From Candidatus Borrarchaeum weybense (GTDB taxonomy: Archaea; Asgardarchaeota; Sifarchaeia; Borrarchaeales; Borrarchaeaceae): a stretch of 64,000 bases of DNA. Both the position numbers and the translations under genes were made by a program. The stretch spans positions 841,040 through 905,039 of the forward strand of contig JAHQJS010000007.1 of the NCBI GenBank assembly GCA_019057385.1, read 5' to 3'. The notes under the pieces are model-generated. The model was given only the letters and a program-made list of their open reading frames with translations, was not told where the DNA came from and did no database searches. This document shows, piece by piece, positions 4,681 through 30,960 of the stretch (its first letter is position 1; each line of letters begins with the position of its first letter).

Positions 4681-5691
4681 ATGCTCATAACAATTTTCTT
4701 AGCCTTTTTAATAGATTTAACGGTAGGAGAACCACCAGAATCCATACATCCAGTAGTATTGATAGGAAAAGTGATTAGGAAGTTAAAGAATGCTTTGAAG
4801 CATCAAAATCCACGCATAGAGAAATTCAATGGTTTAATACTAGCAGTAAGCACAATTATAATCTTTGTAATTCCCTTACTTTCATTGTTAATGATTGTTC
4901 GTATATTTCTTGGAATATTGGCCTCGATTTTATTCGCGGCATACCTTCTAAAAACAACCTTCTCAATGAAGTTTTTTATCAGTTTAATATCTCCAATTGC
5001 AAACGCACTCGAAAGAAATGATATTGAGGACGCCAGAAACCTTGTATCACGTGTGGTTGGAAGGGATACGTCAATCTTAGATAGCAGGCTAGTTGCATCA
5101 GCAGCAGTTGAAACGACTGCAGAAGGGATACCTGATTCTTTGATCTCACCAATTTTTTATTTTATTATTTTTGGAGTATTTGGAATTGTAACTGGAATAA
5201 TTGGTGCGTTAGTATTTCGAGCAGTAAGCACTTTGGACTCGATGGTTGGTTACAAAGATTCCGAACATATCAATATAGGTATGGTTTCAGCAAGATTAGA
5301 TGATGTTGCGAATTTCATTCCTGCTCGTCTTTCCGCATTATTAATCGTTATTGCCTCTGCTCTTCTTAGAGAAAATTATAAAAACTCATGGAAAATAATG
5401 TGGAGAGATGGATCTACAACAAGTAGCATTAATTCTGGATGGGTGATGGCTGCTGCTGCCGGTGCGCTTAATGTTCAACTTGAAAAGCCGGGAAATTATT
5501 TGCTTGGGGATGCTATTGAGGTTGTGAACACAAGCCATATTTTTCGAACCACTAAAATATTGAAATTTACGATATTACTCTTTATATTGTTTATATGCTT
5601 TCCACTCATCCTTTTTAGTCCATTTGTCAGCCGTCCATTGCTTAGATTTATTGCTGTATCAATAGCATCGATTTTAATGGTTTATATTTAA
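4681..5691 (+). CDS. cbiB: Adenosylcobinamide-phosphate synthase CbiB
   Basis: D..VGEP...HPVV.IG, VGRDT, STLDSMVGYK, ARLDD.ANFIPARL; membrane protein; ORF is open from 4609. Confidence 0.92.
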   Translation: MLITIFLAFLIDLTVGEPPESIHPVVLIGKVIRKLKNALKHQNPRIEKFNGLILAVSTIIIFVIPLLSLLMIVRIFLGILASILFAAYLLKTTFSMKFFISLISPIANALERNDIEDARNLVSRVVGRDTSILDSRLVASAAVETTAEGIPDSLISPIFYFIIFGVFGIVTGIIGALVFRAVSTLDSMVGYKDSEHINIGMVSARLDDVANFIPARLSALLIVIASALLRENYKNSWKIMWRDGSTTSSINSGWVMAAAAGALNVQLEKPGNYLLGDAIEVVNTSHIFRTTKILKFTILLFILFICFPLILFSPFVSRPLLRFIAVSIASILMVYI

Positions 5692-5721
5692 TGACCTTTA
5701 TAATATCAAAAAGCTATATTT

Positions 5722-6405
5722 GTGATAAAAATGACACCAGATATAGAAGAGATCAAAATTGATGGAATAACTGCTGAGATTAACGAAAATGCCATTATAA
5801 TTAACTCAGATATTCCATTGAAAACTTTAAGTTCAGCAGTTCTAAATGGGGGACTCATTGAAAGTCGAAGCATATTGAACTATCAAGTTCCTTTAGATTA
5901 TTCACATGATGATCCAAAAAAGGACTTAAAACGTGTTTCTGAGGCATTTGATCTTAAACCACCAGTAATTGGGCTGATGACTGGTGTCAATATTAAAAAT
6001 GTTTCAATTAAAAACGAAATGCGTAATAACATATCAACATGTGCAATAATAACAGCGGGGCTTTCTAATCCTGCCGCTGCTGGAGATTATATTCCTATAC
6101 AAGATTTCGGTACGATAAATATTATTGTGTTGATTGATGCTGATTTGACGAATTCTGCATTAGTAGATGCAATTAAAACAATAACTGAGGCAAAAACCTT
6201 AGTATTGCATGATTTAGATATAAGAAGTCCCTATTCGAAACATTTTGCGACAGGTACAACGAGTGATGCAGTAGTTGTTGCATGTACAGGACAAGGCGGA
6301 ACTTATGAATATGCTGGTACTGCAACCAAAGTGGGTTATTTAAGTGCCAGAGTCGTTATAAAGGCTTTAAAGATCGCTCTAGAGAAACAAGAGGGAATTG
6401 TATAG
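5722..6405 (+). CDS. cbiZ: Adenosylcobinamide amidohydrolase CbiZ
   Basis: LSSAVLNGG, GLMTGV, GTINI, TEAK, ATGTTSDAV, YAGTAT. Confidence 0.9.
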   Translation: MIKMTPDIEEIKIDGITAEINENAIIINSDIPLKTLSSAVLNGGLIESRSILNYQVPLDYSHDDPKKDLKRVSEAFDLKPPVIGLMTGVNIKNVSIKNEMRNNISTCAIITAGLSNPAAAGDYIPIQDFGTINIIVLIDADLTNSALVDAIKTITEAKTLVLHDLDIRSPYSKHFATGTTSDAVVVACTGQGGTYEYAGTATKVGYLSARVVIKALKIALEKQEGIV

Positions 6406-6419
6406 CGGAGGCGAAAAAG

Positions 6420-7274
6420 CTGGCATTTAAGAAAATTAAGTATCTATTTTCATTTCTTACAACTTTGCCTGTTAAAGGTCCTGAATCCTTTGAAGAAATA
6501 GCAGATGGCTTCTACATTGCACCATTTGTCGGCTTTATAATAGGCTGTCTCGCAGGTCTCTTAGCTTATATTCTATCTTTAATTTTTCCTCCTTTACTTA
6601 CTGGAATACTAATTTTGGGATTTCTTTTCCTGATAACTGGATTACATCATACAGACGGGCTATTTGATTTTGGCGATGGTTTAATGGCACATGGAGATCC
6701 GGAAAGACGACTAGAAGTTATGACAGACCTAAGAATTGGTGTAGGTGGGATAGGATTAGGTTTAATAATACTAATGACTACATTTCTGTCTATTTCTGAG
6801 ATAATTAGACTCTCCAGTCCATTTTCCGCACTTATTATTCCCGGATCATTTCGTGTTAATACGTTCCTAGAATTCTTTCTTGGTATACCTATGATTATAC
6901 AAGCCTTAATTATAGCTGAAGTTTCAGCAAAATTGTCTATGGTTATGATAGCAGCAGCAGGAAAACCCGCAAAAAAGGAAAGTATGGCTTTAACAGTCAT
7001 TAAAAGAATGAAAAACAAAGGCAAATTCGCAATAAGTATAATTCTTTCGCTACTGTTTCTAGTTCCTTTTCAGTGGATTGGAATAATTGGTTTGTTTACT
7101 GGAATACTAGTAGCACTTTTAATCAACTCTATATCAGTTAAACGATTCAATGGGATTACAGGGGATGTAATGGGTGCAACAAATGACATTTCACGCGTAG
7201 TAACTTTGTTATGCATAATAGCAATCACCGAAATGGTTTGTCCGTGTGCATTGGGCTTTAGGATACCGATCTAG
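6420..7274 (+). CDS. cobS: Cobalamin synthase CobS (probable CTG start)
   Basis: TGLHHTDGLFDFGDG, GITGDVMGA; the conserved FLTTLP lies upstream of the TTG at 6465; GGAGG SD 8 nt before CTG 6420. Confidence 0.9.
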   Translation: MAFKKIKYLFSFLTTLPVKGPESFEEIADGFYIAPFVGFIIGCLAGLLAYILSLIFPPLLTGILILGFLFLITGLHHTDGLFDFGDGLMAHGDPERRLEVMTDLRIGVGGIGLGLIILMTTFLSISEIIRLSSPFSALIIPGSFRVNTFLEFFLGIPMIIQALIIAEVSAKLSMVMIAAAGKPAKKESMALTVIKRMKNKGKFAISIILSLLFLVPFQWIGIIGLFTGILVALLINSISVKRFNGITGDVMGATNDISRVVTLLCIIAITEMVCPCALGFRIPI

Positions 7275-7280
7275 CCAAAA

Positions 7281-7913
7281 GTGAGTAGAATGAAGGTAAC
7301 TGCGTTGATAATGGGAGGGGGCAAAGGTACTAGAATGAAATCTAAAGAAGAAAAAACATTAATTCTATTGAATGGCAAGCCAATAATCTATTGGGTTATC
7401 GATGCGATCCACGCTGCTAAAAATGTTAAGGAAATAATCGTAGCAACTAGTTATGCATCACCACAAACGAGAAAATATTTACATCAACTTGATGTTAAGA
7501 TCATAGATACTCCAGGAAAGGGATTCCATGAAGATATGAAACATGCAATCCTTACTGAACAGATTAAGGATCATGTCTTGGTAGTCGCTGGAGATTTACC
7601 TCTTCTAACAGGAGAGTTAATTGATATAATAGTTGATTATTATGCGACTTTGGAAATCCCGAGCTTGGCGGTTATGGTTCCACTTGAAGTTTTTATAAAA
7701 CATGATTTAACGCCTTCGATAATATTTACCATTGATGAAAAACAAGTAATACCAGTAGGTGTAAATATAAATGATGGAAGTCATATTGATAAGAAGGAAA
7801 TAGATCAAGAAATCATGATTGTCGAAGACGTTAGATTAGCATGCAATGTGAACACCTTGAATGACTTATCTATTGCAAAAAGTCTTTTCCAGCAACTACG
7901 AAAATTAAAGTAA
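7281..7913 (+). CDS. cobY: GTP:adenosylcobinamide-phosphate guanylyltransferase CobY
   Basis: MGGGKGTRM...EK NTP-transferase motif, GDLPL, NVNT..DL; follows cobS. Confidence 0.85.
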   Translation: MSRMKVTALIMGGGKGTRMKSKEEKTLILLNGKPIIYWVIDAIHAAKNVKEIIVATSYASPQTRKYLHQLDVKIIDTPGKGFHEDMKHAILTEQIKDHVLVVAGDLPLLTGELIDIIVDYYATLEIPSLAVMVPLEVFIKHDLTPSIIFTIDEKQVIPVGVNINDGSHIDKKEIDQEIMIVEDVRLACNVNTLNDLSIAKSLFQQLRKLK

Positions 7914-9119
7914 TGAGTCTTTACGCTCCTTTGTTTTGTTAGAAAATGAGATGTTAAGAATCTCTGCTATGGTAGGGGCTATATTCAGGATGTTTCCGTT
8001 TTCATGGAATCCTTTAGATAAATTACTCCCAATAAGCGATAAGAAAATTCCCATATCAGAAGACGAAAGGGATCCATGAATTGCTTTTGCATAGTGAGAA
8101 TCTGTAACTCCTCCCTTAAAACATACAGTAAGATCGCCGATGTCTTTAGTAACAACATAGTATGGACTCAGTTCGTGAGGGCGTGCAACAAATTCAACTT
8201 TAGATCCAAAAGAAGACAGAATTTTGTGTTGAATCTCATTGATGAGTGAATTTGATTCAGAATACAAATAAGAGAGTCCCCCATTTCTAATTATAATTGC
8301 AGAGTTATCCTCAATCGGAAGTGTTATTCTCTCCGTAACTTCTGTTGACCCATGGTCGCTCATTATAAAAATAACTGGAGAGTCGTACTTATTCATAATG
8401 TATGAAAGGAGTTCTTCTATAATTTTTTCCAATAATGGAAGATGATTATTAACTTCTGCTGAATCCTTACCATAATAGTGCTTTAAAAAGTCTAGATAAG
8501 GAAAGTGAAATAATAATAAATCACTAGCATCATTTTTAATCGCTTGTTTTGCTAATTGCATAACCCAGATGTCTGGATTGTCGACATATTTTTGCCCGAG
8601 AGGATCATTAACATCGTCAACATGAAAAGAATAGGAATCGTCTATCTGTTCACTTATCCAATAGGGTACCTTCGATAAAGGTACTTCAAATGGAAATGAG
8701 GCAATATCCTCATACTTGATATAAGTAGGTTCTAGGATTATGTCTGCACCTCTGCCACAGATTCTTCCTACGGCAAAACCAGTGATCATCATCGTTCTTA
8801 AACCATTTTTACTAGCTATTTCAAAGATAGTTTCTGTCGCTATCGCATTTGGATCCCAATTTCTTACGTCCTGAAAAAGCATCTTCTTTTTTTGAGTTCT
8901 ATCATAGAAATTACCGATTATACCATGTTTATTTGGCGGCAAGCCTGTGAGCATACTTGAAATTGACGAAAATGTAAGCGATGGAAAGATTGTCTGTGCA
9001 TTTGGAAAATGCATCGCGTTATTTTTCAGATTGGATAACTGCGGACATTTTTGAAGATCATTATGAGTCAAACTATCAATTAATATGATAAAGACCTTAT
9101 TTTGGTTCATGAGATCCAT
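7905..9119 (-). CDS. Alkaline-phosphatase superfamily nucleotide pyrophosphatase/phosphodiesterase (NPP type)
   Basis: IILIDSL, FPSLTFS (Thr nucleophile), TGLPPNKHGI, LDFLKHYYG, MSDHG, AIHGS, IAPTIA. Confidence 0.8.
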   Translation of the reverse strand: MDLMNQNKVFIILIDSLTHNDLQKCPQLSNLKNNAMHFPNAQTIFPSLTFSSISSMLTGLPPNKHGIIGNFYDRTQKKKMLFQDVRNWDPNAIATETIFEIASKNGLRTMMITGFAVGRICGRGADIILEPTYIKYEDIASFPFEVPLSKVPYWISEQIDDSYSFHVDDVNDPLGQKYVDNPDIWVMQLAKQAIKNDASDLLLFHFPYLDFLKHYYGKDSAEVNNHLPLLEKIIEELLSYIMNKYDSPVIFIMSDHGSTEVTERITLPIEDNSAIIIRNGGLSYLYSESNSLINEIQHKILSSFGSKVEFVARPHELSPYYVVTKDIGDLTVCFKGGVTDSHYAKAIHGSLSSSDMGIFLSLIGSNLSKGFHENGNILNIAPTIAEILNISFSNKTKERKDSLL

Positions 9120-9142
9120 TCCAAACGCCTATAATATAATAT

Positions 9143-10204
9143 CTAGCTAGTTCTTTCACTAACACCTGCATCGGCAAAAGTAGCCATCTCGTTGAGAATT
9201 TTTATGCTTGCTTCGACTAATGGCATGGCTAATGCGGCACCTGTTCCTTCACCTAGTCTGAGATCAAGATTTAAAAGCGGCCTTTTATTAAACGTTTCTA
9301 GAATGATTTGATGGCCACGCTCTACCGATAAATGGGAGGCAATGAAATAATCTTTTACATTTGGCTGTAATTTATATGCTACTAGAGCCCCAGCACTAGA
9401 AATAAATCCGTCTAGTAAAATAGGTATCTTATGTGCTGCTGCTGCTAAAACCACACCAGTAATGCCGCCAATTTCAAAACCTCCAACTTTCGATAATACA
9501 TCAATAGGATCAGTAATATCAGGATTATGCTTCGCCAAGGCTTTTTTTATTACATCGATTTTGTGAGCTAGCATTTCATCGTCAATACCAGTTCCCCGAC
9601 CTGTTACTTGTTCAACGGGTGCTCCTGTAAGGGCAGCTACTATTGCAGAACTTGTAGTTGTATTGCCAATGCCCATATCTCCACAACCAACTATATCAAT
9701 ACCATTCTTAGCCTCTTGCTCAAATACCTCAATTCCCGCTTCAATAGATCTAATTGCCTCATCTTTAGACATAGCATGGTCTTCAGCAAAATTTTTTGTG
9801 CCATAATTGATTTTCTTATTGATAATTTTGCCAGAAGCTTCATTAAGATCGGCTGCAACCCCCATATCTACTACTACGACTTTAGCATCAACATGCCTTG
9901 CCAATACGTTAATGGCAGCTCCACCTCTCACGAAATTGTATACCATTTGTGGTGTAACCTCTTGAGGATACCCCGTAACGCTTTCTTTGACTACTCCGTG
10001 ATCTCCTGCTAGTACAAAAATTACTTTCTTCTTTATCTTATATTCCTCATTTTCAGTTATCGTCAATACATCTTTAGTGATTTCTTCTAGCATTCCAAGA
10101 GAGCCAAGCGGTTTTGTAAGAGCATCTAGACGTTTTTGCGTTTTTGCTTTTAATTCATTCTTAATTGGTGAGATTTGATTTAATGTTTTCTTCAATACGT
10201 CCAT
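9143..10204 (-). CDS. cobT: Nicotinate-nucleotide-dimethylbenzimidazole phosphoribosyltransferase (bacterial-type CobT)
   Basis: LTKPLGSLG.LE, AGDHGV, GDMGIGNTT, LRLGEGTGA, EMATFADAGV. Confidence 0.95.
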   Translation of the reverse strand: MDVLKKTLNQISPIKNELKAKTQKRLDALTKPLGSLGMLEEITKDVLTITENEEYKIKKKVIFVLAGDHGVVKESVTGYPQEVTPQMVYNFVRGGAAINVLARHVDAKVVVVDMGVAADLNEASGKIINKKINYGTKNFAEDHAMSKDEAIRSIEAGIEVFEQEAKNGIDIVGCGDMGIGNTTTSSAIVAALTGAPVEQVTGRGTGIDDEMLAHKIDVIKKALAKHNPDITDPIDVLSKVGGFEIGGITGVVLAAAAHKIPILLDGFISSAGALVAYKLQPNVKDYFIASHLSVERGHQIILETFNKRPLLNLDLRLGEGTGAALAMPLVEASIKILNEMATFADAGVSERTS

Positions 10205-10305
10205 CTTAAACCCTCATTAAATCTTTTTGACAACTCCAACAATTCTATAGCCTTTACTAGGACCAAAGGATGCTCATGTGAATCTATAATCAATTGAAAC
10301 CTTCC

Positions 10306-11256
10306 TTAGTTTTTTACAGGATAGAGACCACATATTTTGCAATAATTCTTATTCATTGCAACTCCTCCACCACATCTTGGGCATATTTTTTCGTTATCAT
10401 TAGGAGGAGGTATCTCCCCAACCGTCTCACGATATATCTTGAAATAATAAGCTTGTTCTTGACTATCTAAAGGAACAATCTTGGACAAATCATTGAATTC
10501 TTCCGTCTCAATACAAAATATTGTACTTAGATTTGTACTTCCGCTTCCTGCTTCTATCGGATACTTGGGCCTCCATACAACATCTGGAGATAAAATCTCT
10601 TCAAACGCTTTTCTTAGTATGTATTTTCCATGAGTTATTCCTTTACGTTCTGCTATTTTGAGCTCAGCAGGAATCTTAAGTGCTAAATCTATTATTCTTT
10701 CGTCAAGAATAGGCTGGAATACCCTTAATCCTAAACTTTCACCTATAGGCTTAGCAGAAAAAGACCAACGTTCTACACCCTCAGTTATCCATTTATCTAC
10801 ATCGCAGGGTTCTAGTTCAAACATGAAAGAATAGCCTGCGAAGAGTTCATCGCCTCCATCACCGGTGAGGACTGATTTAACACCAAACTCTTTTAGATAT
10901 TTCAAACCGATATAGATTGTTATGTCATTTCTAATTTCCATTGGATCGAATGTTCTAAGCGTTTTAATTACATATTCTGCAGCCTCAGCAGCTTCCTCAA
11001 GGGTAAAAAGTTTAACAAAGTTTTGAAATGAAAACCGGTCAGCAACTATTTTTGCATAATAGAGATCAGGTGCGTCGCTATCAGAAAAACCAACTGAAAG
11101 AGTAATCGGCTTAAAATATCGGCTAACTAAAGCTGCTACAATTGAAGTATCAAGACCACCTGAAAGCAGGAAAGCATCGGCATAATAATCTTGAATGACT
11201 TCATTAAAAACTCTTAAAATTTCGTCTGTATACTTCTTTATACTATGTTCTTGCAA
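10306..11256 (-). CDS. Asparagine-synthetase-like PP-loop ligase without glutaminase domain, with C-terminal Zn ribbon
   Basis: LLSGGLDTS, TGDGGDELFAGY, KYILRKAF, WRPK, C-terminal CPRCG...CKICG. Confidence 0.8.
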   Translation of the reverse strand: MQEHSIKKYTDEILRVFNEVIQDYYADAFLLSGGLDTSIVAALVSRYFKPITLSVGFSDSDAPDLYYAKIVADRFSFQNFVKLFTLEEAAEAAEYVIKTLRTFDPMEIRNDITIYIGLKYLKEFGVKSVLTGDGGDELFAGYSFMFELEPCDVDKWITEGVERWSFSAKPIGESLGLRVFQPILDERIIDLALKIPAELKIAERKGITHGKYILRKAFEEILSPDVVWRPKYPIEAGSGSTNLSTIFCIETEEFNDLSKIVPLDSQEQAYYFKIYRETVGEIPPPNDNEKICPRCGGGVAMNKNYCKICGLYPVKN

Positions 11257-11273
11257 GTGTTTTTTACCCCCTA

Positions 11274-11930
11274 CTAGATTACGTTAAAATCCTCTATCTC
11301 AAGAAGCAATCGGTCGTCTTTCACAACTTTTTTGCTCGCTACTATTTCTATACGCCGCTGGAAGAATGGACCATTAGTTACAAGGGTGTGATATTCACCA
11401 TTTTCGCCACACAAATCGATTTCTCGACTTCTGAGGTAATCTATAAATTCCCAGTTAAGGGGATGTCCTATCCAGTCGTCATGTATAAGATCAGATTTAA
11501 CGCTGATAATTTTGGCTTCAAAACCATTATTTATGAATTCCATTAGTAGATTTTCGTATTTTTGCTTCCATAACGGTTCAAAAACATCGAGTTCAGCTTC
11601 TTCACAAACCTTCTCGACCCAATCTCTGTTTTCCTGAAAATCTATGTCTCCAAATACTCCGCTTTCGATGCCTCTATTCCTCAGTTCCTTAATTCTTCTC
11701 TTAAATTCTCGTTCATAATCTTCCCAAGAAGCCCTCCCATAAACTATTGGAATTCCAATTGCTTTAGCTTGTGCATCAATAATTTCTTTTCTTAAACCAT
11801 GACCTCTAGACCGTAAACCGTCTTCGTCAAGCATGTTAAATAGGAATTCAACATGTAAACCGGTTTTCAGAGCTCTAAATAACGCCAAGCTACTTTCTTT
11901 ACCACCGCTCCAAGAAACAAAAACTCTCAA
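11274..11930 (-). CDS. DUF71/COG2102 PP-loop ATPase (B12-salvage-associated subgroup likely)
   Basis: VSWSGGKES, VFGDID, DLCGENGEYHT; lies inside the cobamide operon. Confidence 0.85.
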   Translation of the reverse strand: MRVFVSWSGGKESSLALFRALKTGLHVEFLFNMLDEDGLRSRGHGLRKEIIDAQAKAIGIPIVYGRASWEDYEREFKRRIKELRNRGIESGVFGDIDFQENRDWVEKVCEEAELDVFEPLWKQKYENLLMEFINNGFEAKIISVKSDLIHDDWIGHPLNWEFIDYLRSREIDLCGENGEYHTLVTNGPFFQRRIEIVASKKVVKDDRLLLEIEDFNVI

Positions 11931-11961
11931 CGGATTTCACCTTCTTTATTATGAATTTACT

Positions 11962-13071
11962 CTATTGAATAATTTGATTAAGCGCACCTAAGAGGCGTTT
12001 ATTCTCTTTTTCAGTTCTTATTCCAATTCGAATATGATTATCACCCAGGGGCTTAAATGACGAGCAATTTCTTACTAAAATGCCGAGTTCCCTTAGTTCC
12101 TGTTCAAGACGAGTTCCTGTTAAACCAGTTCCACTAACATCAACAAAAAAATAATTTGCATCTGGTAATTCCGTCTTAAGCCCTCTTATTTTTGCTAAGT
12201 TCTCCATAAGAAATCTTTTTTGTTTATAGAAGAGTTCCTTAGATTTTTCTAGATAAGATATATCCTTTAAAGCCGCAATTGCTGCTACTTGTGCTAAATA
12301 GTTTACGTTCCATTCAAGTTTGGCGCGGCTCATATATGAGATTAATTCCTTAGATCCTATTCCATACCCGACTCTAAGTCCTGGTATAGCAAATATTTTG
12401 GTGAGCGAGTGAATTACAAAGACATTTGTATGTTGTGTAACTCTGATGGCATAACTTACACCTTTTTCTGTGCTGTCTATGAAAACTTCATCGAGAAAAA
12501 CGAGAACCTGTTTTTCATTAGCGTCTTCGACAATGCTTTGAAGTTCATCTGGCGGCATCAATTTTGAAGTAGGATTGTTTGGATTGCATAGAAAAATCGC
12601 TTTGGTTTTATCGGTTATTTTTGCAATTATATCACTTGAATTAACAATAAAATCAGGAGATTTCAATTCTACAAATATAGGAAGTGCGCCCATGAATTCT
12701 GTCGCAACCGTATATTCGTCAAAAGTCGGAATGGGAATAATTACTTCGTCGCCCTCTTCAAAAAAAGTCTCTGCAAATAATCTTATCAGTTCATTCGAGC
12801 CATTCCCAACTATTAGATTTTCCTCATGTAGATTGTAAATCTTGGTAAGTTCCTTTTTAAATTCTGTCGAATGAGAATCTGGATAATGAGAAAGATTATG
12901 CAAATTTCGTCTTATCACTTCTATAACGGATTCTGGGGGTCCAATAGGGTTTATACTAGCACTGAAATCTATTAATTCTATTGCTTGTACATTGGGGTTT
13001 TTCTTATAGTGCCAAAACTTGCCCCCATGAGTGCTTGCCTTCAATTCTATTATAGATTTACGCGGTCGCAT
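11962..13071 (-). CDS. cobD: L-threonine-O-3-phosphate decarboxylase CobD
   Basis: HGG, DFSASINP.GPP, CNPNNPT, SLTKIFAIPGLRVGY, LVRNCSSF; cobamide context. Confidence 0.8.
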   Translation of the reverse strand: MRPRKSIIELKASTHGGKFWHYKKNPNVQAIELIDFSASINPIGPPESVIEVIRRNLHNLSHYPDSHSTEFKKELTKIYNLHEENLIVGNGSNELIRLFAETFFEEGDEVIIPIPTFDEYTVATEFMGALPIFVELKSPDFIVNSSDIIAKITDKTKAIFLCNPNNPTSKLMPPDELQSIVEDANEKQVLVFLDEVFIDSTEKGVSYAIRVTQHTNVFVIHSLTKIFAIPGLRVGYGIGSKELISYMSRAKLEWNVNYLAQVAAIAALKDISYLEKSKELFYKQKRFLMENLAKIRGLKTELPDANYFFVDVSGTGLTGTRLEQELRELGILVRNCSSFKPLGDNHIRIGIRTEKENKRLLGALNQIIQ

Positions 13072-13119
13072 TATTTCACCCTTAATAAATATAGATAAAA
13101 AGAAAGGGCAATAATATCA

Positions 13120-13722
13120 TCATATTGCCTCTTTCACTTTAAGTCCGATCCTATATCCAATTATACCTGCAACAAATCCAAAAATTACACCAACAATTAC
13201 ATTCAAAACAATAAACACGCCGTAGGGTACACCAAAGAAGAATTCTACAAATGCGACATACTCAGGATACGTAATTGTTAGCAAACCCAGCTGGAACGGA
13301 TAGAACACAATTGCTCTTAAGCATGCTCCGATGCCTGCTTTTAGAGAATTATTAGGATATCCACCAGTGATATAGAAGAAAGCCTCTATTAATGCTCCAG
13401 GTAAAATATCAGATGCTAGACCGATTACTGAAAAAATATTTGGAAATAAAACTACTTCAAGAAGCCCATGGAGAAAGAAGATAAGAAAAACTGTTCCTCC
13501 CTTTCTTATTATTGTAGCTGCGAGCAGTACAAGAGTCATCGCTAAGAGTTCATAAACTATAACGGATACTACCCAGCTAAGCGGGGCCGGTATAGCAGCG
13601 AGCCCAATAAACCAAATTTGTTGCACACCATACCAGACGCCAACAAAAATTGCAATAACAACTAAATCAAATGTAGCAAACCGTTTGAAAAACCCTTTTT
13701 CTTGCTCAGTTTCCATTGTCAC
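13120..13722 (-). CDS. ECF transporter S (substrate) component, probably corrinoid-related
   Basis: About 200-aa hydrophobic multi-TM protein directly after ecfT/ecfA. Confidence 0.65.
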   Translation of the reverse strand: MTMETEQEKGFFKRFATFDLVVIAIFVGVWYGVQQIWFIGLAAIPAPLSWVVSVIVYELLAMTLVLLAATIIRKGGTVFLIFFLHGLLEVVLFPNIFSVIGLASDILPGALIEAFFYITGGYPNNSLKAGIGACLRAIVFYPFQLGLLTITYPEYVAFVEFFFGVPYGVFIVLNVIVGVIFGFVAGIIGYRIGLKVKEAI

Positions 13723-13742
13723 TGTTTCACCTCCTTAGTTTT

Positions 13743-14573
13743 TCATACTACTATTTGCATTAACTCTACGCTAATATTCTGAATAGAAAAGACTTCAATC
13801 AAGACAATAATAGATAAAGCAACCAGAAGGACTGAAAAAACCAACATGAGATAATCTCTACTTCCTAATTGAAGGGTCTCCATCGTAGTTGGATTTTTTG
13901 TAGCTCGAAAGCCTCGTGCATCTAGAGAATACGCTAATTGCATACTTCTACGTATCGAATGAATAATTAAAGGCGTAAACAATCTTTTGATTGATTTAAT
14001 ACGCCCTATTATACCACTTGTTTCAATTCCCCGAACATTTGCAACTGCTGTTAACTTCTTCCATTGTTCAATTGCGAGTGGAATGAAACGAATCGTAATG
14101 ATTACCATGATTGTTAGCTCATAAGGACAACGTAGTTTTCTAAGTGCACTCACCATTCTACTGGGTTCTGTGGTAAGGGAAACCAATAATGCCATTGAGA
14201 CTAATGATAATGTTCTGAATGAAAATGTAATTGAAGCAAGAAGAATCTCGGTGTAGATTCCAGAACCACCTATTATCGGAATCACTGCGGGAATTACTTC
14301 TATGTACGTTAAACGTTCTTTAGGCGCAATTCTTGAAAATACTGTTGAAGAAACAAACATAAAAGCAAAAAGTAACGCTATACTTTTAAAAAAGTAACTA
14401 ACGGTCTTAATAGGTAACTTTGCAAGTAACCAAGCGCAAAGAACGGCGATAAATGAAAGAAATAGAATAAGTGCATCGTGAATTGTACTTATTAGCATCA
14501 AGAAAGACATCGAAGTTATCAACTTAACTCTAGGATCCAAGCTTGATGAACTAAAATTTATACTATTCTGCAC
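13743..14573 (-). CDS. ecfT: ECF transporter T component
   Basis: LDPRVK, IRFIP, VRG and LDARGF motifs. Confidence 0.88.
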   Translation of the reverse strand: MQNSINFSSSSLDPRVKLITSMSFLMLISTIHDALILFLSFIAVLCAWLLAKLPIKTVSYFFKSIALLFAFMFVSSTVFSRIAPKERLTYIEVIPAVIPIIGGSGIYTEILLASITFSFRTLSLVSMALLVSLTTEPSRMVSALRKLRCPYELTIMVIITIRFIPLAIEQWKKLTAVANVRGIETSGIIGRIKSIKRLFTPLIIHSIRRSMQLAYSLDARGFRATKNPTTMETLQLGSRDYLMLVFSVLLVALSIIVLIEVFSIQNISVELMQIVV

Positions 14574-14587
14574 TTATCTCGCCCTTC

Positions 14588-16099
14588 TCAGTTTTCCATT
14601 ATTGGTAGTTGCACATTTTCTGTCGGAAATTGCCTAGAATTATTTTGTGCCATGTTTTGGTTAATGTGAGTTTCCATTATTTTCCCATTTTCTAATAAAA
14701 GTACTCTATTTGATATTGCACTGAGAAATTCCAAATCATGTGAGATTGTAATTAATGTGTGTGTTTCATTCAATTCTTGAGCCAATTTGATGAAATCTTG
14801 CTTATGCTTATAGTCTTGTCCAGTTGTAGGCTCATCGAAAATCAAAATATTCGGTTGTGATACTAATAACGAAGCAATTGCAACCCTTTCTCTTTCCCCA
14901 TAACTTATTTTAAAAGTACCTTTGTTATCGTAACCCTTAAGATTCAATAAATCGAGGGTTTCGTTTAAAAGCTTGTTTTTCTCATCCTCACTCAATCTTT
15001 GAATCCAAGGCGCGTATAAAATTTCATTTGAAACCTTGGTCGTCAGAATATTATCGTCTGGGTTTTGAAAGAGCACACCGATTTTCCTTATTGCTTGTTT
15101 ACGTTTATAACTCCCGATCAGCTTTCCATCAATCATTATAGAGCCTTGTTTTGGCTTAAGAACGCCTGCTAAGATAAGTGCAAGAGTCGTTTTTCCAGAA
15201 CCATTCTCACCCATTATTCCCAGGGATTCTCTTTCAAAGATTGAAAAAGAAATGTCAGTTAAAACGGAGTAATTATTATAGGAGAATGAAAGATTTTCTA
15301 CTTGCAAGATTTTAGATCCATTAGTAATATTGGATTGTAGTGAGGGGTATATGGTCGTATTCAAAGGCTGTATTCCATAAGTGTTACAAAATTTTGTGTC
15401 TGTTAATATTTGAGGATCATCTGCAACTATTTCTCCACGATTTAGAACGATAACCCGATCGGTAATTTTACTAACTTCTTTTGTCCTATGCTCTGCAATT
15501 ATAACAGTGATATTTTGATTTTCGCTGATTTGATCGATTAATGCTAGTATTTTTCTACCTGTTTTAAGGTCAATATTTGAAGTGGGCTCATCAAAAACCA
15601 TTATAGCTGGACGAAAAGCAAGCATAGACGCAATACAGACTCTCTGTTGCTGTCCCATTGATAGTTCTGTCAATGGTTTTTCGGCAAATTTCTCCATTTC
15701 TACTGCTTCAAGTGCAAAATAAACCCTTTCTTGTATTTCCTCAGGAGGCAATCCTAAATTCTGTGGACCAAACGCTACTTCATCTTTAACCTTTAGAGAA
15801 AATAGTTGGGCCGATGGATTTTGGAGCACAACACCAACTTTATTTTTTAAGTGATAGGGAGGTGTTCTTTGGAGATTTTCACGTCCAACAGTTATATTGC
15901 CTTTAATTTTTCCTTCGGAATAAGAGTGCGGTATTAATCCGCTTATACATAATACTAATGTTGACTTGCCGCATCCGCTGGGTCCAACAATTAGTAAACG
16001 CTCACCTTTATTGACTTTCAGATTGAAATCCTTCAAGGCAGGTTTCTCTGTGTTCGAATAACAATAAGAAAAATTCTCAACATGAATAAGCGGATTCAT
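14588..16099 (-). CDS. ECF transporter fused double ATPase (A-A')
   Basis: Two Walker A (GPSGCGKS, GENGSGKT), QNP loops, two DEPT motifs. Confidence 0.88.
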   Translation of the reverse strand: MNPLIHVENFSYCYSNTEKPALKDFNLKVNKGERLLIVGPSGCGKSTLVLCISGLIPHSYSEGKIKGNITVGRENLQRTPPYHLKNKVGVVLQNPSAQLFSLKVKDEVAFGPQNLGLPPEEIQERVYFALEAVEMEKFAEKPLTELSMGQQQRVCIASMLAFRPAIMVFDEPTSNIDLKTGRKILALIDQISENQNITVIIAEHRTKEVSKITDRVIVLNRGEIVADDPQILTDTKFCNTYGIQPLNTTIYPSLQSNITNGSKILQVENLSFSYNNYSVLTDISFSIFERESLGIMGENGSGKTTLALILAGVLKPKQGSIMIDGKLIGSYKRKQAIRKIGVLFQNPDDNILTTKVSNEILYAPWIQRLSEDEKNKLLNETLDLLNLKGYDNKGTFKISYGERERVAIASLLVSQPNILIFDEPTTGQDYKHKQDFIKLAQELNETHTLITISHDLEFLSAISNRVLLLENGKIMETHINQNMAQNNSRQFPTENVQLPIMEN

Positions 16100-25146: not shown

Positions 25147-25593
25147 CTACGATTTACTTTTTTTTCTTCTTTTTTTAAATGAAAGTAAACAATTCTGAAA
25201 TTCATCAAAAGATTTTTTGGAAATAATGCCGATTAAATTACCATCGTCATCAACCACACAAAGCCTGTTTATCGTAGTCCTCTCGAATTGGGACGCAATA
25301 TCAAAGACTCTATCATTTGAGAATACGGAATATATGGACGACACCATCACATCTTTTGCTATAAATTCGCAAGGATTCTTGCCTTCCGAGATTAATTTGA
25401 CAATTACTCCTTCGGTAATAATACCAACAGGCTTGTTCGAGTTTATAACAAGAATGCTATCAACCTGATGGCTGATCATTAATTCAGCAACTTTTGTTAA
25501 GTTATCTTCCAGATCACATGTAACAATATCTATAACCATATCAATCGCTAAGGGAGCGATCTTATTAATTTCTTCACTCATTTTCTTCACCAT
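25147..25593 (-). CDS. CBS-domain pair protein
   Basis: PVGIITE, RLCVVDDDGNLIGIIS. Confidence 0.8.
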   Translation of the reverse strand: MVKKMSEEINKIAPLAIDMVIDIVTCDLEDNLTKVAELMISHQVDSILVINSNKPVGIITEGVIVKLISEGKNPCEFIAKDVMVSSIYSVFSNDRVFDIASQFERTTINRLCVVDDDGNLIGIISKKSFDEFQNCLLSFKKRRKKSKS

Positions 25594-25709: not shown

Positions 25710-26972
25710 CTAGAAGGGCTTTGCAATTCTTTTTATTTCTGCTGTGCTTTCCGTGGGTTGAAGCGCCTCTAAATCAATTGGAAATGTACCGTATTCTTTT
25801 ACCTTTCTGATAAGGTATTTGAATCTTTGCATTGTACATGCAGGTGAAACCGTGTCCAGTTTGACAGGTACAGAGCCTCCTCCTGGTGCTGTATCTCTTA
25901 TATGTCTTCTTACTCGTTCATCTAAGATCTCCAAGGCAGCATAATTGATGGTTTCAGCATCGGTTCCGACAACCCAGAGTTTCTTGTTTTTCGCAGATAT
26001 TTTTTTTGCAGCAGCTAAGTCAGCTATTCGTGTATCCATCCCATACATGAACACAATGAATCCACTATTATCCATGTAATGTTGCCAAAAGTTTTTCCAG
26101 TCATCAACAGCTTCGTAAAATCTGAATACGCCCCAGTTGTTATAGGGTGTTCTCTTTATGACCTTCATAGCAGCTGGCATTGCGAATTCTTCCCAGTTCT
26201 TTGTACCGATCAGCGGAACGTCGCATGCGGCAGCCCACATGAAAGGAAATAGTGTTGGTGCATGGGGCTTTACAACTTCTTCGTATTGAAACTTACCATA
26301 GTCGGTCGCTAAATCCACGTATAAGTCTAAGACTTTCCACAAGAATTCAGGATCTCTGCGTGCCCATTTAATAAGTCTTGTGAATCCCATAGTCTTAAAT
26401 GCGATGTCCCAAGGGGTAGCTTGGAAGTAGAAGGGTGTAAGACGACCGGGTAAGGTCTCAAATATTGTCTTCATTATACCAGCAAAAAATGGTCCTCTGC
26501 CCTCTGTACTTAAGTCGGGTACTCTTAATTTGTCAAAATCTGCCTTCTCTTTGATTATTTCTCCATCTGGTGCTACACAGGGGTACGACGTTGTTGGACG
26601 GAGGAGTTTGCACCCTAGTACTTCAGGCTCGATGTTGTATACATCAAAGTCAGCCTGTGGAAACTCATGTTCCAGCTTGTCTACAACCCAATATTGACTC
26701 GCCACGAGTTTTTTATAGCTATAGCAGCACTCAAGTAAAGGAATTTTTGAGTGGTGTGAGGCAAACGTTTCCATAAGCCCAGTAGGCCCAGGTATTCGCC
26801 ATTTAGGTTCTTTATAGGTTGCAAGTCTTGCTATGGCTTCAGCAGGTGTCTCAGGATATTTATCAATTCTAGCCTTGATTTTTTCTGTGTGTTCTTGGAT
26901 TCTCTTTTCCATTTCTGGCTCTGTCTTTTCCTCGTATACTTTCTCACCAAATATAGTTTCTCCAAAACCCAT
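25710..26972 (-). CDS. UroD/MtaA-fold substrate:corrinoid methyltransferase (MtoB/MtgB-like candidate)
   Basis: E.LGCK, FDKLRVPD..EGR, PWDIA...MGF...RDPE, APGGG, VKEYG; 16 nt downstream of the corrinoid protein gene. Confidence 0.7.
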   Translation of the reverse strand: MGFGETIFGEKVYEEKTEPEMEKRIQEHTEKIKARIDKYPETPAEAIARLATYKEPKWRIPGPTGLMETFASHHSKIPLLECCYSYKKLVASQYWVVDKLEHEFPQADFDVYNIEPEVLGCKLLRPTTSYPCVAPDGEIIKEKADFDKLRVPDLSTEGRGPFFAGIMKTIFETLPGRLTPFYFQATPWDIAFKTMGFTRLIKWARRDPEFLWKVLDLYVDLATDYGKFQYEEVVKPHAPTLFPFMWAAACDVPLIGTKNWEEFAMPAAMKVIKRTPYNNWGVFRFYEAVDDWKNFWQHYMDNSGFIVFMYGMDTRIADLAAAKKISAKNKKLWVVGTDAETINYAALEILDERVRRHIRDTAPGGGSVPVKLDTVSPACTMQRFKYLIRKVKEYGTFPIDLEALQPTESTAEIKRIAKPF

Positions 26973-26988
26973 TTTTTATACACCTCTA

Positions 26989-27630
26989 TTAAACTGCTCC
27001 TATTAGTCTTTTACACTCGCGTACAGCATCAGCTGCATCTCTGCCGAATCCGTCCGCATTGTATTGAATTAACATATCACGATATGCGCCAGCACCACCG
27101 ATTATATATTTTACTTTGTCCCTAACACCAGCCTCAGTAAGTGCCTTCTCAATTGCTGGAAGCTCTATATCAGCTGTTGATGTAGAATAGGCGGAAGCCC
27201 CAATTAACTCTGGGTTGTATTTCTTTATTGCCTCAACGAATTTTTCAGGATAGACATCTGAGCCCAAATCAATGACTTTAAATCCAGCACCTCTCAGAAA
27301 TGCACCAACAAGGTTTTTTCCGATGTCATGAACATCTCCTCTAACAACTCCAAGAACTATCGTCGCAATAAAATCTGCGTTACCACTTTTTTCCAATTCA
27401 GGAAGGACAATATTCAGGGATTTTTTCGCAGCTTCACCAACCATCATTAGATCAGCAATGAAGTACTCTTTTTGCTCAAGTCTTTTCCCTGCAACTGTCA
27501 AGCCATTTTTCATCGCATCGATGACTTCCATTGGCTTTGCACCTTCATTAACCGCACGTTTTGTCAGCGCTTCTGCATCGTCATCTTCGCCCTCAAGAAT
27601 AGCGTTTTCTAAGTCCTTTAAAGTAGACAT
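26989..27630 (-). CDS. Methyltransferase cognate corrinoid protein (MtaC/MtbC-like)
   Basis: Cap domain plus GDVHDIGKNLV, DLG.DV, IIGGA. Confidence 0.92.
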   Translation of the reverse strand: MSTLKDLENAILEGEDDDAEALTKRAVNEGAKPMEVIDAMKNGLTVAGKRLEQKEYFIADLMMVGEAAKKSLNIVLPELEKSGNADFIATIVLGVVRGDVHDIGKNLVGAFLRGAGFKVIDLGSDVYPEKFVEAIKKYNPELIGASAYSTSTADIELPAIEKALTEAGVRDKVKYIIGGAGAYRDMLIQYNADGFGRDAADAVRECKRLIGAV

Positions 27631-28286
27631 TTTTTCTATCTCTCCTAGTTTTGATCCATTTTACATATTTTTTGGATGAACCTCTATTTTCAAGAAGTCC
27701 ATTTAAGTTATAGCGAATTATTATTATAGTTTTACTATAAAAAGTTTATTACTTAATAATAATTTTTTTGTATTTATGATATAATTTATTATAATTATGA
27801 ATATGCTTTTTTCAAATAACAATTTAATACATCCAATCCTGGTGTTTCCTTTTTACGAAAAAATCGTACTATGAAGTCGGTATTCTACATCGGATCGATA
27901 TTCATTCGGGCGAGCCCTTCAGGGTATTTTAATAAAGAATAATTTTCTTACAATTAGTTTATAAGCTCCGCGTAGTGTAAAAATATAAGAATGCCAATAT
28001 TAACGGAAAGAAGTCACAGGTTACATTCTGCATGTGAAACTGGCATAACAAGAAGGATCCTTTGTCAGTTGCATATTTTATTTGAGCTCCTGCAAATCAA
28101 CCAATTTCACTCTTTAAAGGATTAATGGAATCGTGAATTCAAACATTTTAAAAATGTACTTACCTTAATACTTATAAATATGGATTAGATTTTTATTATA
28201 ATTAGTTTGTATTTCCCTAATATAATATTTGAAAACGAGATTATGTAGCGGAAACTATTATTCGCATTATCTATAGAGTGATTGCA

Positions 28287-29423
28287 ATGGACGTATCGAT
28301 ACTCAAAATTAAGGAAGACCTTTTAGAAAAGGTAAAACTAGCAGTAATTGATGGCAACGATATTATAATCGGTAAATATATATTAAACGTATTGAATTCG
28401 AACATTCCAAATCCATTTGACTCTATTATGACCGTTCTTATTGAAGGCATTAAAAGAGTTGCAGATATGTACGAAACAGGAGAATGTGAGCTGCCAGATT
28501 TGATACTAGCGGGGGAATCACTCAAAGAAGCACTTAGTATTATAACAAATAACGTGCGCGACCCCTCTAGTTTTTTACAAATAAAAAAAGGAAAAGTTAT
28601 CCTAGGAACTGTAGAAGGTGACACTCATGATATCGGCAAAAATGTCGTTGCAGCCATGCTTCAAGCTAATGGTTTTGAAGTTATAGATCTCGGACAGAAC
28701 GTACCACCTCAGATATTCGTCGAAAAGGCAGTAGAAGAAAAGGCGAATATTATAGGGGCCTCTTCATTTATGTCAAGCACTAGAAATTCTCAAAAAAAGA
28801 TTTTAGAAGAATTAGAAAAGGTGGGACTTAGAGATAAAATTATTTTTCTCATCGGTGGGGCTGCGGTCTCAAAAGATTATGCCAAAACGATTGGTGCAGA
28901 TGGATATGCGAAAGACGCTTTTGAGACAGTTGAACTGCTTGAGGGCTTGGTTAATAACCAAAAGAAAATTACACCAGAAAAAAATCACAAATTATTACTT
29001 AAAATGGAAGAAAACAGAAAAATGATTGAACAATTAGCTGATCAAGTCAAACAGTTTCAAGATATTATTGGGAAGACAACTAGTAGAGAAGTGAATGTTG
29101 ATAAAAGTCGCCTTTTAATTTCGCAGAAGTTCATAAATGTCAAAAATATAACGTTTTCAGAAGAAAAGGTTTACAAAATATTATCAAGTTTGTCCAACAA
29201 AGTTCGCTTAAGGGTTCTTATGGCTCTATGGCAAAAACCTTTACATTTTTCCGAAATCGAAGAAGTCATATCAGTTAAAGGCGGTCATCTTCAATTTCAC
29301 GTGGGAAAATTAAAAAACGAAGGATTAATTGAACAAAAGAAGAACCGAGGAAAATACTCAGTTACTCAAAAAGGCAAAAAAGTAATAATGATAACAAGTC
29401 AATTATCATCGCTTGAGAATTAA
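28287..29423 (+). CDS. Corrinoid-binding protein fused to a C-terminal ArsR-type winged-helix DNA-binding domain
   Basis: Cap domain plus GDTHDIGKNVV, coiled-coil linker, then LSNKVRLRVL...FSEIEE...GHLQFHVGKLKNEGLI...GKYSVTQKG. Confidence 0.82.
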   Translation: MDVSILKIKEDLLEKVKLAVIDGNDIIIGKYILNVLNSNIPNPFDSIMTVLIEGIKRVADMYETGECELPDLILAGESLKEALSIITNNVRDPSSFLQIKKGKVILGTVEGDTHDIGKNVVAAMLQANGFEVIDLGQNVPPQIFVEKAVEEKANIIGASSFMSSTRNSQKKILEELEKVGLRDKIIFLIGGAAVSKDYAKTIGADGYAKDAFETVELLEGLVNNQKKITPEKNHKLLLKMEENRKMIEQLADQVKQFQDIIGKTTSREVNVDKSRLLISQKFINVKNITFSEEKVYKILSSLSNKVRLRVLMALWQKPLHFSEIEEVISVKGGHLQFHVGKLKNEGLIEQKKNRGKYSVTQKGKKVIMITSQLSSLEN

Positions 29424-29454
29424 CACACACTTAGAATATTCTTGGCAAGAGTAA

Positions 29455-30276: not shown

Positions 30277-30960
30277 TCAAATATTATATTCGCAGTGTTG
30301 GGTAAGAGATTCACCGCTAAAAGATTTCTTTCGGTATTCACAAGTTCTTGGACAATATTGGCAGGCAAAGTATTCTTCTGGTGTGGCCGCGAAAATGCCT
30401 GAAAGTGATTTTCTAGGTATCATTAAAAAACTGGGCGTAAGATGAACCCCTATAGTCCCAGTCGGATTCAAAATCTGAAAAATAACCTCTTGTTGCTTGA
30501 TATCAAAGAGTTTACCTGTTCCAGATCCCGGAGTAAAGTTGGATATTGTGCTTCCCAATTTTTCTTTCATTAAAGATCTGACGTAGGCAGCTGCTTTCTC
30601 TACTGCGTAATCTGCTATACACTCCATGATAAATCCTCGAAGTATGCTACTTTTAGTTTCTTCTGAAGCTTTTTTTTCCAGTCCTGGTCCAATTGTAACT
30701 ATATAGGGAACTACTGTTTGATTAACTTTTAATACTTCACCAAGGATCGAACTCTTTAGAATGTATTCGCTTTCTAATTGGATTTCATCCTTCTTAATAC
30801 TAGTCACTTTTAATAAGGTGTATACTGTCGTAGGTTCAATCAATCGACGGCAGTCCTCTATAAGCGGTACTACTTTCGTCTCCTTCATTCTTCTGTTTTT
30901 TAGAGTTCGTATTAAGTCCCTAGCATCTAAATCAATAGGTATGAAATCAATTACTTCCAC
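30277..30960 (-). CDS. B12-dependent methionine synthase reactivation-domain-like protein, paralog 1
   Basis: YIVTIG..LE, F.PG.G, IGV.LT.SFLMIPRKSLSGI, C-terminal CQYCPRTCEYR. Confidence 0.75.
   Translation of the reverse strand: MEVIDFIPIDLDARDLIRTLKNRRMKETKVVPLIEDCRRLIEPTTVYTLLKVTSIKKDEIQLESEYILKSSILGEVLKVNQTVVPYIVTIGPGLEKKASEETKSSILRGFIMECIADYAVEKAAAYVRSLMKEKLGSTISNFTPGSGTGKLFDIKQQEVIFQILNPTGTIGVHLTPSFLMIPRKSLSGIFAATPEEYFACQYCPRTCEYRKKSFSGESLTQHCEYNI

Follow-up and report, generated by a model that had tools for sequence, protein, structure and literature searches.

Which signal, if any, is passed to DNA by a protein in which a corrinoid module of the kind that carries methyl groups is joined to an ArsR-type DNA-binding domain? 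This question is raised by a gene of the Asgard archaeon Candidatus Borrarchaeum weybense, located in a stretch of 64,000 nucleotides (the window) that forms the final 64 kb of contig 7; the genome is 4.18 Mb in size, consists of eight contigs and is rated 100% complete. Its product of 378 amino acids (aa), hereafter the fusion, is probably a cobamide-dependent DNA-binding regulator of the methyltransferase gene island in which it lies, judging from sequence and structure models. The further proposal, that the signal is the methyl or redox state of its own cobamide, is more tentative and has in our view somewhat less than an even chance. The architecture and its conservation, an intact cofactor site, the kinship with methyl carriers, the ArsR fold, and the linkage to and co-occurrence with a methyltransferase are established by the analysis; the binding of cobamide and of DNA, the target genes and, above all, the signal are matters that we infer.

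B12 is known to control genes through riboswitches or through CarH/LitR and AerR, proteins that sense light, and archaea are not known to use B12 riboswitches. A third form would be added by a regulator with a methyl-carrier module at its core, in which cofactor supply or methyl/redox state, not light, controls transcription.

Architecture of the fusion and type of its B12 module

The open reading frame (ORF) runs from ATG 28287 to the stop at 29421-29423. A GTG at 28278 was considered as an alternative start and is unsupported, as orthologs begin with the same M-D-(A/V)-S as the product of ATG 28287; a Shine-Dalgarno-like block, GTGAT, is aligned upstream of the ATG in all orthologs. Pfam recognised B12-binding_2 in residues 12-86 (1.4e-10), B12-binding in residues 102-215 (2e-26) and DUF7347 in residues 299-367 (1.3e-8; 35.4 bits, above the cut-off of 27.6). 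HTH_5/ArsR on residues 305-349 fell 0.2 bit short of its cut-off (21.8 against 22 bits), and the ArsR NCBIfam model NF033788 gave 27.3 bits against a cut-off of 55. An AlphaFold2 model (66-row alignment) with a mean predicted local distance difference test score (pLDDT) of 85.7 laid out cap helices, a Rossmann domain, a single long helix, a disordered stretch (residues 264-284) and a five-helix winged helix (a1-a2-a3-a4-wing-a5), with the boundaries listed in Table 1. The DxHxxG lower-ligand motif is intact (D112-T-H114-D-I-G117, nt 28620-28637). An MtaC-like module of cap and DxHxxG Rossmann domain, followed by a C-terminal winged helix-turn-helix (wHTH), had been the original prediction, and it is borne out by both Pfam and the model.

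The coiled coil predicted between the two halves stands as a heptad-patterned helix, evident in both sequence and model. Positions a are occupied by M240, I247, V254 and I261, and positions d by L236, N243, L250 and F257, as read from the sequence, with N243 invariant across orthologs. Its pairing is a prediction: a coiled coil is plausible for residues 230-264, and the full-length homodimer prediction scored 0.29, under the 0.42 mark for a verdict, which speaks neither for nor against dimerisation.

The C-terminal half is 62% identical among orthologs, with the recognition helix G-G-H-L-Q-F-H-x-G-K-L-K and the wing invariant. When this part was modelled alone, Foldseek placed the ArsR/SmtB proteins BigR, HlyU, NolR, SmtB and CzrA on top (template modelling score ~0.7 over 86-99 residues), and the domain shares with them the a1-a5 winged-helix fold and the HTH_5/HTH_metalloreg profile matches. 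It differs from them in that a metal or thiol site (an a3N Cys pair or an a5 His/Asp/Glu set) was not found: residues 230-378 are free of Cys, and a5 (361-377), as read from the sequence, lacks His, Asp and Cys and has E377 as its sole Glu. The input would come from the N-terminal B12 module instead. Msr regulators of Methanosarcina are archaeal ArsR-like HTH proteins with DUF1724, dedicated to corrinoid methyltransferase operons and devoid of a B12 domain; in contrast to them, the fusion has a B12 module and a C-terminal HTH, and Pfam found no DUF1724 (PF08350) in it.

The B12 module is of the methyl-carrier type (MttC, MtmC, MtaC, MetH) and not of the CarH type. NCBIfam models for MtgC, pyl_corrinoid and MtbC matched at 1e-50 to 1e-45, against 3e-7 for CarH, and the CarH/LitR model NF052513 gave 29.9 bits, far below its cut-off of 400. 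TIGR02370, which describes methyltransferase corrinoid proteins, gave 163.7 bits under a cut-off of 215.3; this cut-off is strict for the lineage, because the neighbouring ordinary corrinoid protein (CP) of 213 aa scores only 161.5 bits. By sequence, the PDB matches were Moorella 1Y80, MttC 7XCN, Desulfitobacterium 4JGI, MtmC 3EZX and MtaC 2I2X, with CarH not among them. By fold, the model matched MttC, MtmC, MetH and MtaC at E 1e-15 to 1e-12 with 27-34% identity, and CarH at E 2e-8 with 20%. The cofactor site of this class of carriers, to which MtoC of the Mto system also belongs, is intact in the fusion: D112, H114, S159, G190 and G191, like G117, are invariant in orthologs, and their columns are conserved in 111-114 of 114 stand-alone carriers. 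The cap residues Y62 and L69 are likewise invariant in the fusion orthologs. In MetH, F708 and L715 cap the methyl ligand (PMC3760249); by PDB alignment coordinates, and assuming no gap before residue 69, Y62 corresponds to F708 and L69 to L715.

The fusion also departs from the carriers, which are stand-alone proteins of ~200-260 aa. It adds a coil and wHTH of 150 residues, has a separate ordinary CP encoded next door, and carries Ala at carrier G59, Cys at position 67 and Glu at position 68. The last position adjoins L69; in the carriers it belongs to a cap-helix motif, E-[YIV]-[FY]-[ILV]-P, and it is F/Y/W in 111 of the 114 stand-alone carriers and Glu in all eight ArsR fusions compared.

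CarH/LitR, the MerR-type adenosylcobalamin (AdoCbl) photoreceptor repressors (PDB 5C8D), resemble the fusion in combining a DNA-binding domain with a helix-bundle/Rossmann B12 module and a His lower ligand, and the cofactor as sensor is the shared principle, established for CarH/LitR and proposed for the fusion. The fusion differs in its reversed domain order, its ArsR-type instead of MerR domain, its methyl-carrier branch, its lack of Wx9EH and its context, a methyltransferase island of a sediment archaeon, and it is not a member of that family. No MerR domain was matched by Pfam, and the C-terminal DUF7347/HTH_5 is the sole DNA-binding domain. Residues 1-314 contain no Trp (W315 is the only one), and what stands at Wx9EH we take to be Y62 and D71-L72. 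The contrast with CarH/LitR that had been drawn from the C-terminal ArsR-type domain, the missing MerR domain and the carrier-type module therefore holds.

The fusion is a genuine gene. A mis-assembly, for which the original prediction had allowed, is excluded, because nine orthologs align with it end to end and independent contigs bridge the domain joint. Among 5.8 billion proteins searched there were some ten full-length counterparts, 383-384 aa long and 69-70% identical, and one of these bears the label Promethearchaeota. A 1020-nt contig from the marine-sediment runs of a different study matches 28305-29324 at 98% identity and spans B12 domain, linker and wHTH, and a 1796-nt contig from a sister sample covers 27115-28910 and so runs from the CP gene across the spacer into the first part of the fusion. 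Sequencing runs that contain half or more of the window are recorded as sediment or marine sediment metagenomes. It should be added that the near-identical matches from one metatranscriptome run were confined to the CP gene (26952-27132, 27466-27610), with none on the fusion, which demonstrates neither expression nor silence.

Distribution, origin and genomic setting

With the C-terminal half as a query against 400 Asgard genomes, a full-length counterpart was present only here and in one genome of the same genus, as a 388-aa frame. In other Asgard genomes the wHTH alone matches, at the C-terminus of proteins of ~250 aa, where it stands behind a coil as in the fusion. This coil-plus-wHTH unit is common in Asgard (204/400 genomes), and no methyltransferase genes were found within 1.5 kb of its ~250-aa representatives in other Asgard genomes. 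With the N-terminal half as a query, corrinoid proteins were recovered from 341 of the 400 genomes, and the best 150 of ~1,000 matches are in frames of 199-260 aa, except for the two fusions. Furthermore, an exhaustive HMMER scan with residues 222-378 against 1.84 billion representatives found two representatives of the fusion clade, the remaining 364 matches being small coil-plus-ArsR proteins with no known domain in front. By this distribution the fusion is young and limited to one genus-level clade, a corrinoid protein joined to a common Asgard coil-wHTH unit.

A relative encodes a stand-alone protein of 228 aa, 69% identical to the fusion module, as the second corrinoid protein of an operon MtrH-MtrH-RACo-URO-D-CP-228-aa protein-CbiO-CbiQ. 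A59 and C67 are common to this protein and the fusion, and its residue 68 is Ile; therefore, the peculiar cap predates the fusion or is independent of it. The genome analysed here encodes eight other corrinoid proteins elsewhere.

The URO-D-family methyltransferase of 420 aa encoded behind the ordinary CP is rare, with 17 clusters in 5.8 billion proteins, and had no PDB relative by sequence search. Among the 400 Asgard genomes its orthologs occur in exactly the two that have the fusion. As these are kin and not independent, the co-occurrence counts as one event; yet on this pattern the regulator seems to travel with the 420-aa enzyme and not with B12 use generally. Mto-type systems, consisting of an MtrH-like methyltransferase 2 (MT2), a URO-D-family methyltransferase 1 (MT1), a corrinoid protein and RACo, have been reported for Lokiarchaeota (PMC8359953). 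The fusion has MT1, MtrH-type MT2 and RACo as neighbours, and the gene set around it is, by its annotation, that of such a system.

Here the fusion is divergent from the CP and URO-D methyltransferase genes across a spacer of 656 bp. At orthologous loci (70% identity) the corrinoid operon and the fusion share a strand, with the operon ~8 kb upstream, in the order CP, methyltransferase, CBS, thermosome (+), MtrH (-), two Zn-ribbon ORFs (+), fusion (+) and DUF1638 (-). Divergent transcription from the CP-methyltransferase operon, as originally predicted, thus applies to this strain and not to its relatives, in which linkage alone persists; that linkage confirms that the gene is physically associated with a corrinoid methyltransferase system.

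Proposed sensing mechanism and competing explanations

Carrier-type modules joined to AraC, LacI and histidine-kinase outputs occur in many bacteria, so the fusion is not one of a kind. Bacterial homologs of the 420-aa methyltransferase (45-50% identity, 49% for one operon) are encoded in the order CP - methyltransferase - AmiS/UreI channel - MtrH - RACo - DUF1638. Directly after these genes, two related operons encode a protein of 615-623 aa with B12-binding_2, B12-binding (plus PocR) and a LytS-type histidine kinase, and then a response regulator with an AraC HTH. A DUF1638 gene is found beside the sensor gene both in Asgard relatives and in bacteria, there directly before the corrinoid-histidine kinase; a further corrinoid-kinase was encountered near trimethylamine/dimethylamine (TMA/DMA) methyltransferase genes.

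When the kinase's module was used as a query against proteins of 342-1091 aa only, 3834 fused proteins were recovered, and the best 120 of these comprised 51 AraC fusions, 2 LacI fusions, 4 kinases and 1 PAS protein, plus enzyme fusions. Three loci were inspected: in one a LacI fusion is accompanied by a pterin methyltransferase and RACo, in another an AraC fusion by two URO-D genes plus RACo, and in the third an AraC fusion by three URO-D genes. No separate corrinoid protein was encoded within 7 kb of the LacI/AraC fusions in 3/3 loci; the regulator's module is therefore probably itself methylated and is probably the working carrier of its operon. In a maximum-likelihood tree the ArsR-fusion modules form a separate, long-stemmed group within the stand-alone carriers, apart from the bacterial regulator modules, and the window's ordinary CP groups (100/99) with the CP of the bacterial homologous operon. 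By this placement the ArsR, AraC, LacI and kinase fusions arose independently.

The bacterial AraC-, LacI- and LytS/PocR-kinase fusions thus share with the archaeal one a carrier-type module with a regulatory output, in or beside corrinoid methyltransferase operons. They differ in output domain, domain order and origin and are uncharacterised, and hence are a parallel and not a precedent. The AraC and LacI fusions differ, moreover, in keeping the aromatic cap residue and in being seemingly the only carrier of their operon. Every AraC, LacI, URO-D and S-methyltransferase fusion compared has an aromatic residue at position 68, and 2/4 kinases, including that of the homologous bacterial operon, have Ser. 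An altered position 68 was considered as a general sensor signature and rejected, as Y/F is retained in the AraC/LacI fusions and a change is seen only in the ArsR fusions and in two of the four kinases. It is suggestive, on few independent cases, that the altered cap occurs in the two sensor types whose loci encode a separate carrier.

B12-binding domains with MerR, HTH_17, ANTAR, kinase and other outputs have been described in a light-sensing context (PMC8717448). A methyltransferase cassette, mec, is controlled by a PocR-kinase according to the literature, and was discarded as a precedent, since that kinase is PocR-based and has no B12 module. The literature yielded no description of a carrier-type corrinoid module joined to an ArsR, AraC or LacI domain, nor of the corrinoid-kinases of the methyltransferase operons, and the expectation of an undescribed system agrees with this.

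We propose that the fusion would act as a one-component transcription regulator, whose sensor is the cobamide of its methyl-carrier-type module and whose output is the C-terminal ArsR-type winged helix, probably dimerised via the heptad helix. The switch would lie between methyl-Co(III) and Co(I)/Co(II), as set by the linked pathway: the 420-aa URO-D enzyme (MT1) would methylate the regulator's cobamide at the expense of its substrate, an MtrH-type enzyme (MT2) would take it off, and RACo and the adjacent DUF1638 protein would hold the cofactor in the cycle. A change at the cap/Rossmann interface would be relayed through the helix and alter DNA binding and, in turn, expression of the methyltransferase island. 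The idea in the original prediction that the adjacent enzyme methylates the regulator's own cobamide is compatible with all observations, and draws indirect support from the exclusive co-occurrence with that enzyme and, by analogy, from the bacterial fusions. State sensing is favoured because the module is of carrier type, is tied to one MT1 and has DUF1638 and RACo adjacent, and because the bacterial fusions are apparently working carriers. In its full form, with a methyl carrier domesticated as a covalent-state sensor in which the balance of MT1 and MT2 sets cobalt methylation and substrate flux is reported to DNA, the proposal is possible and, on the whole, doubtful.

If methyl-state sensing were true, the mechanism would be categorically new, and a principle of cofactor methylation sensing would be common to independent AraC-, LacI-, kinase- and ArsR-linked modules, widespread and undescribed, with its first archaeal example in Asgard. 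Since there are parallel fusions in bacteria of gut and sediment, what is learned from this protein would apply more widely. The regulator, which is small, modular and well suited to assays in vitro, is also a possible handle on the substrate of the rare adjoining methyltransferase, and a protein sensor in a corrin-auxotrophic Asgard archaeon would bear on how a scarce shared cofactor is budgeted in sediments.

Several points weigh against regulation by methyl state. A conserved operator could not be defined from promoter alignments and a genome palindrome count; the divergent promoter arrangement is peculiar to this strain, although linkage within ~8 kb is kept in all relatives; and, with a stand-alone protein 69% identical to it, the module may be no more than a carrier that was acquired recently. 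Sensing of cobamide availability explains the data almost as well. Under this alternative, which we regard as possible and, on balance, not likely, only the holo- (or only the apo-) protein would bind DNA, and the island, perhaps with salvage and uptake, would follow cofactor supply, the protein being a stand-in for bacterial B12 riboswitches. The conserved cofactor-site residues are equally required for mere cofactor binding. CbiC was not found in the genome, CbiB and CobS are present, and on this gene content the organism probably salvages corrinoids rather than making the ring. This and the salvage and transport genes of the island (CbiB, CbiZ, CobS, CobY-like, CobT and ECF CbiQ/CbiO) fit an availability sensor, as do the linkage of CbiZ, kept ~24 kb from the fusion in the sister genome, and the lack of a riboswitch in the window. 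The bacterial kinase sensors have a PocR small-molecule domain as well, which suggests a "substrate AND cofactor" logic, with PocR sensing the substrate and the corrinoid module reporting something else, e.g. cofactor supply. There are precedents for such a dependence: CarH needs B12 to oligomerise, and the eut genes of Enterococcus require both ethanolamine and AdoCbl.

Against availability, a general B12 sensor should be widespread, and the fusion tracks one rare methyltransferase, in 2/400 genomes compared with corrinoid proteins in 341/400; in this genome the eight other corrinoid proteins are encoded elsewhere. Moreover, the fusion has its place among the methyltransferase genes of the island, at a distance of 12-24 kb from those for transport and salvage, and the module appears to be a working carrier in the AraC/LacI analogs.

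It is improbable that the fusion is no regulator at all, being either a working methyl carrier with a winged-helix tail for dimerisation, docking or nucleoid tethering, or a young near-neutral fusion. Such an origin would suit its limitation to one genus-level clade and the 228-aa protein, which is the second CP of a methyltransferase operon in the relative. The C-terminal half is, however, clearly constrained, as its recognition helix and wing are invariant at 62% identity; its fold and profile matches are DNA-binding ArsR/SmtB proteins; the coil-plus-wHTH unit is a widespread Asgard family (204/400 genomes); and the repeated independent fusion to AraC, LacI and kinase outputs argues for signalling. 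A CarH-like light sensor, in which a photolabile upper ligand (adenosyl or methyl; alkyl-cobamides are photolabile) is lost in light with a change of oligomer and DNA binding, would account for the two-part B12 module and the Foldseek match to CarH (E 2e-8) and is very improbable given the missing MerR domain, the 29.9 bits against 400, a cap with no Trp and hence no Wx9EH, methyl carriers as nearest relatives, sediment or marine sediment as the recorded source, and neighbours that serve methyl transfer and not photoprotection.

Spacers, candidate operators and neighbouring genes

Features of the island are collected in Table 1. In the spacer between the fusion and the CP gene, the last ~140 bp before the fusion ATG and ~170 bp before the CP ATG are conserved in orthologs. 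A candidate palindrome in the CP promoter, TATAGTTTTACTATA at 27725, has only two copies in the genome and was rejected as a conserved operator, as the orthologous promoters are not palindromic there. In the distal CP promoter, TATAAT-AA-ATTATA at ~27765-27778 (window + strand) keeps its symmetry by a paired change in one orthologous locus, TATAGT-AA-ACTATA; with very AT-rich DNA next to TATA boxes, this dyad, which would be an operator by inference only, is not counted as one. TAATATT-TT-AATATTA, conserved upstream of orthologous fusions, is degenerate in this window and was set aside.

Two further sites had been put forward as targets for electrophoretic mobility shift assays, and for both this needs correction. 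In the spacer 20383-20710, the palindrome at 20452, related to TATAGTTTTACTATA, is within a strain-specific insertion, and at 16265-16288 there is a GC hairpin beside a leader-like motif, with no link to the fusion protein. The latter site is in the CbiO-RACo spacer, where 16200-16240 (+) holds a copy of the corrinoid-protein leader GGATCAAAAGGAGAGATAGAA without a gene behind it, followed by a perfect hairpin, ACCTACC-TAG-GGTAGGT, at ~16262-16278. At the CbiO-RACo site a relative has three extra genes (URO-D, CP and a CP like the 228-aa stand-alone protein).

A search of 27500-30400 against Rfam was negative up to an E value of 1, and the whole window gave a single tRNA and no riboswitch. Within the fusion-CP spacer, 27855-27935 (-) contains a GC-rich inverted repeat, CCCTGAAGGGCTCGCCC..., and then a T-run, ACGATTTTTTCG, which may represent a small transcript or else terminate transcription between the divergent promoters.

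Table 1 Features of the fusion gene and the surrounding island in the window
Feature	Position	Strand	Basis or remark
Fusion gene, corrinoid module + ArsR-type domain, 378 aa	28287..29423	+	ORF, Pfam, NCBIfam, nine orthologs, independent bridging contigs
Four-helix cap (B12-binding_2), residues 3-96	28293..28574	+	Pfam, AlphaFold2; clade-specific A59, C67, E68
Rossmann B12-binding domain, residues 102-228	28590..28970	+	Pfam, NCBIfam, PDB comparison; S159, T165, G190, G191 kept
Long heptad-patterned helix, residues 230-264, candidate dimeric coiled coil	28974..29078	+	AlphaFold2 models, sequence heptads
Variable linker, residues 265-291, predicted disordered	29079..29159	+	pLDDT <50; least conserved stretch of ortholog alignment
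ArsR/SmtB-fold wHTH, residues 292-377	29160..29417	+	Pfam DUF7347/HTH_5, Foldseek, ortholog alignment
Spacer of 656 bp, fusion / divergent CP operon	27631..28286	.	Ortholog alignments
Stand-alone CP, 213 aa, 38% identical to fusion module	26989..27630	-	Pfam, NCBIfam, tree
Rare URO-D-family methyltransferase, 420 aa, probable substrate:corrinoid MT1	25710..26972	-	Pfam; distribution matches fusion
CBS-pair protein	25147..25593	-	Pfam, relatives' loci; behind methyltransferase in all Asgard relatives
CP - 420-aa URO-D methyltransferase - CBS - thermosome	22.8-27.6 kb	-	Island map
DUF1638 / MetH-activation-domain-like protein	30277..30960	-	Pfam; adjoins fusion convergently in relatives
Two paralogous Zn-ribbon ORFs, 120 and 126 aa	20711-21073, 21089-21469	+	Sequence comparison, relatives' loci
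RACo activase	16549-18399	-	Pfam
Three MtrH-type methyltransferases	18426-19343, 19453-20382, 21652-22626	-, -, +	Pfam
Second DUF1638-like gene	33869-34552	-	Island annotation
Second RACo	34722-36635	+	Island annotation
Mtd gene	beyond 29.4 kb, with DUF1638-like genes and second RACo		Island map
Cobamide salvage + transport cluster: CbiB, CbiZ, CobS, CobY-like, CobT, aminotransferase, ECF CbiQ/CbiO	4609..16099	.	Annotation and searches
CbiB, CbiZ, CobS, CobY-like, CobT, aminotransferase	4609-13071 (4.6-13 kb)		Complete archaeal cobinamide salvage + nucleotide-loop set
ECF CbiQ/CbiO	13.7-16.1 kb		Cobamide island

Genes for a CBS-pair protein and a thermosome-type chaperonin (22819-25593, -) immediately follow the CP-methyltransferase pair in every Asgard relative, and the bacterial versions of the operon are without them. 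In bacteria, an AmiS/UreI-type channel gene is always found behind members of the 420-aa methyltransferase clade (three loci), which hints, by analogy, at a small amide- or urea-like methyl donor for this clade. The two Zn-ribbon ORFs are 40% identical to each other, have the pattern CPxCG...CxxC, match no Pfam family and are located directly 5' of the regulator in relatives; they may be part of the regulatory unit. Finally, an insert at 29455-30270 in this strain keeps the fusion and the DUF1638 gene apart, with a repeat-bearing spacer of 0.85 kb between them; in relatives the two genes are 55-245 bp apart. The first 46 bases of the insert (29455-29500) are covered at high depth by many contigs in three runs, and it is therefore a multi-copy repeat or a mobile-element remnant.

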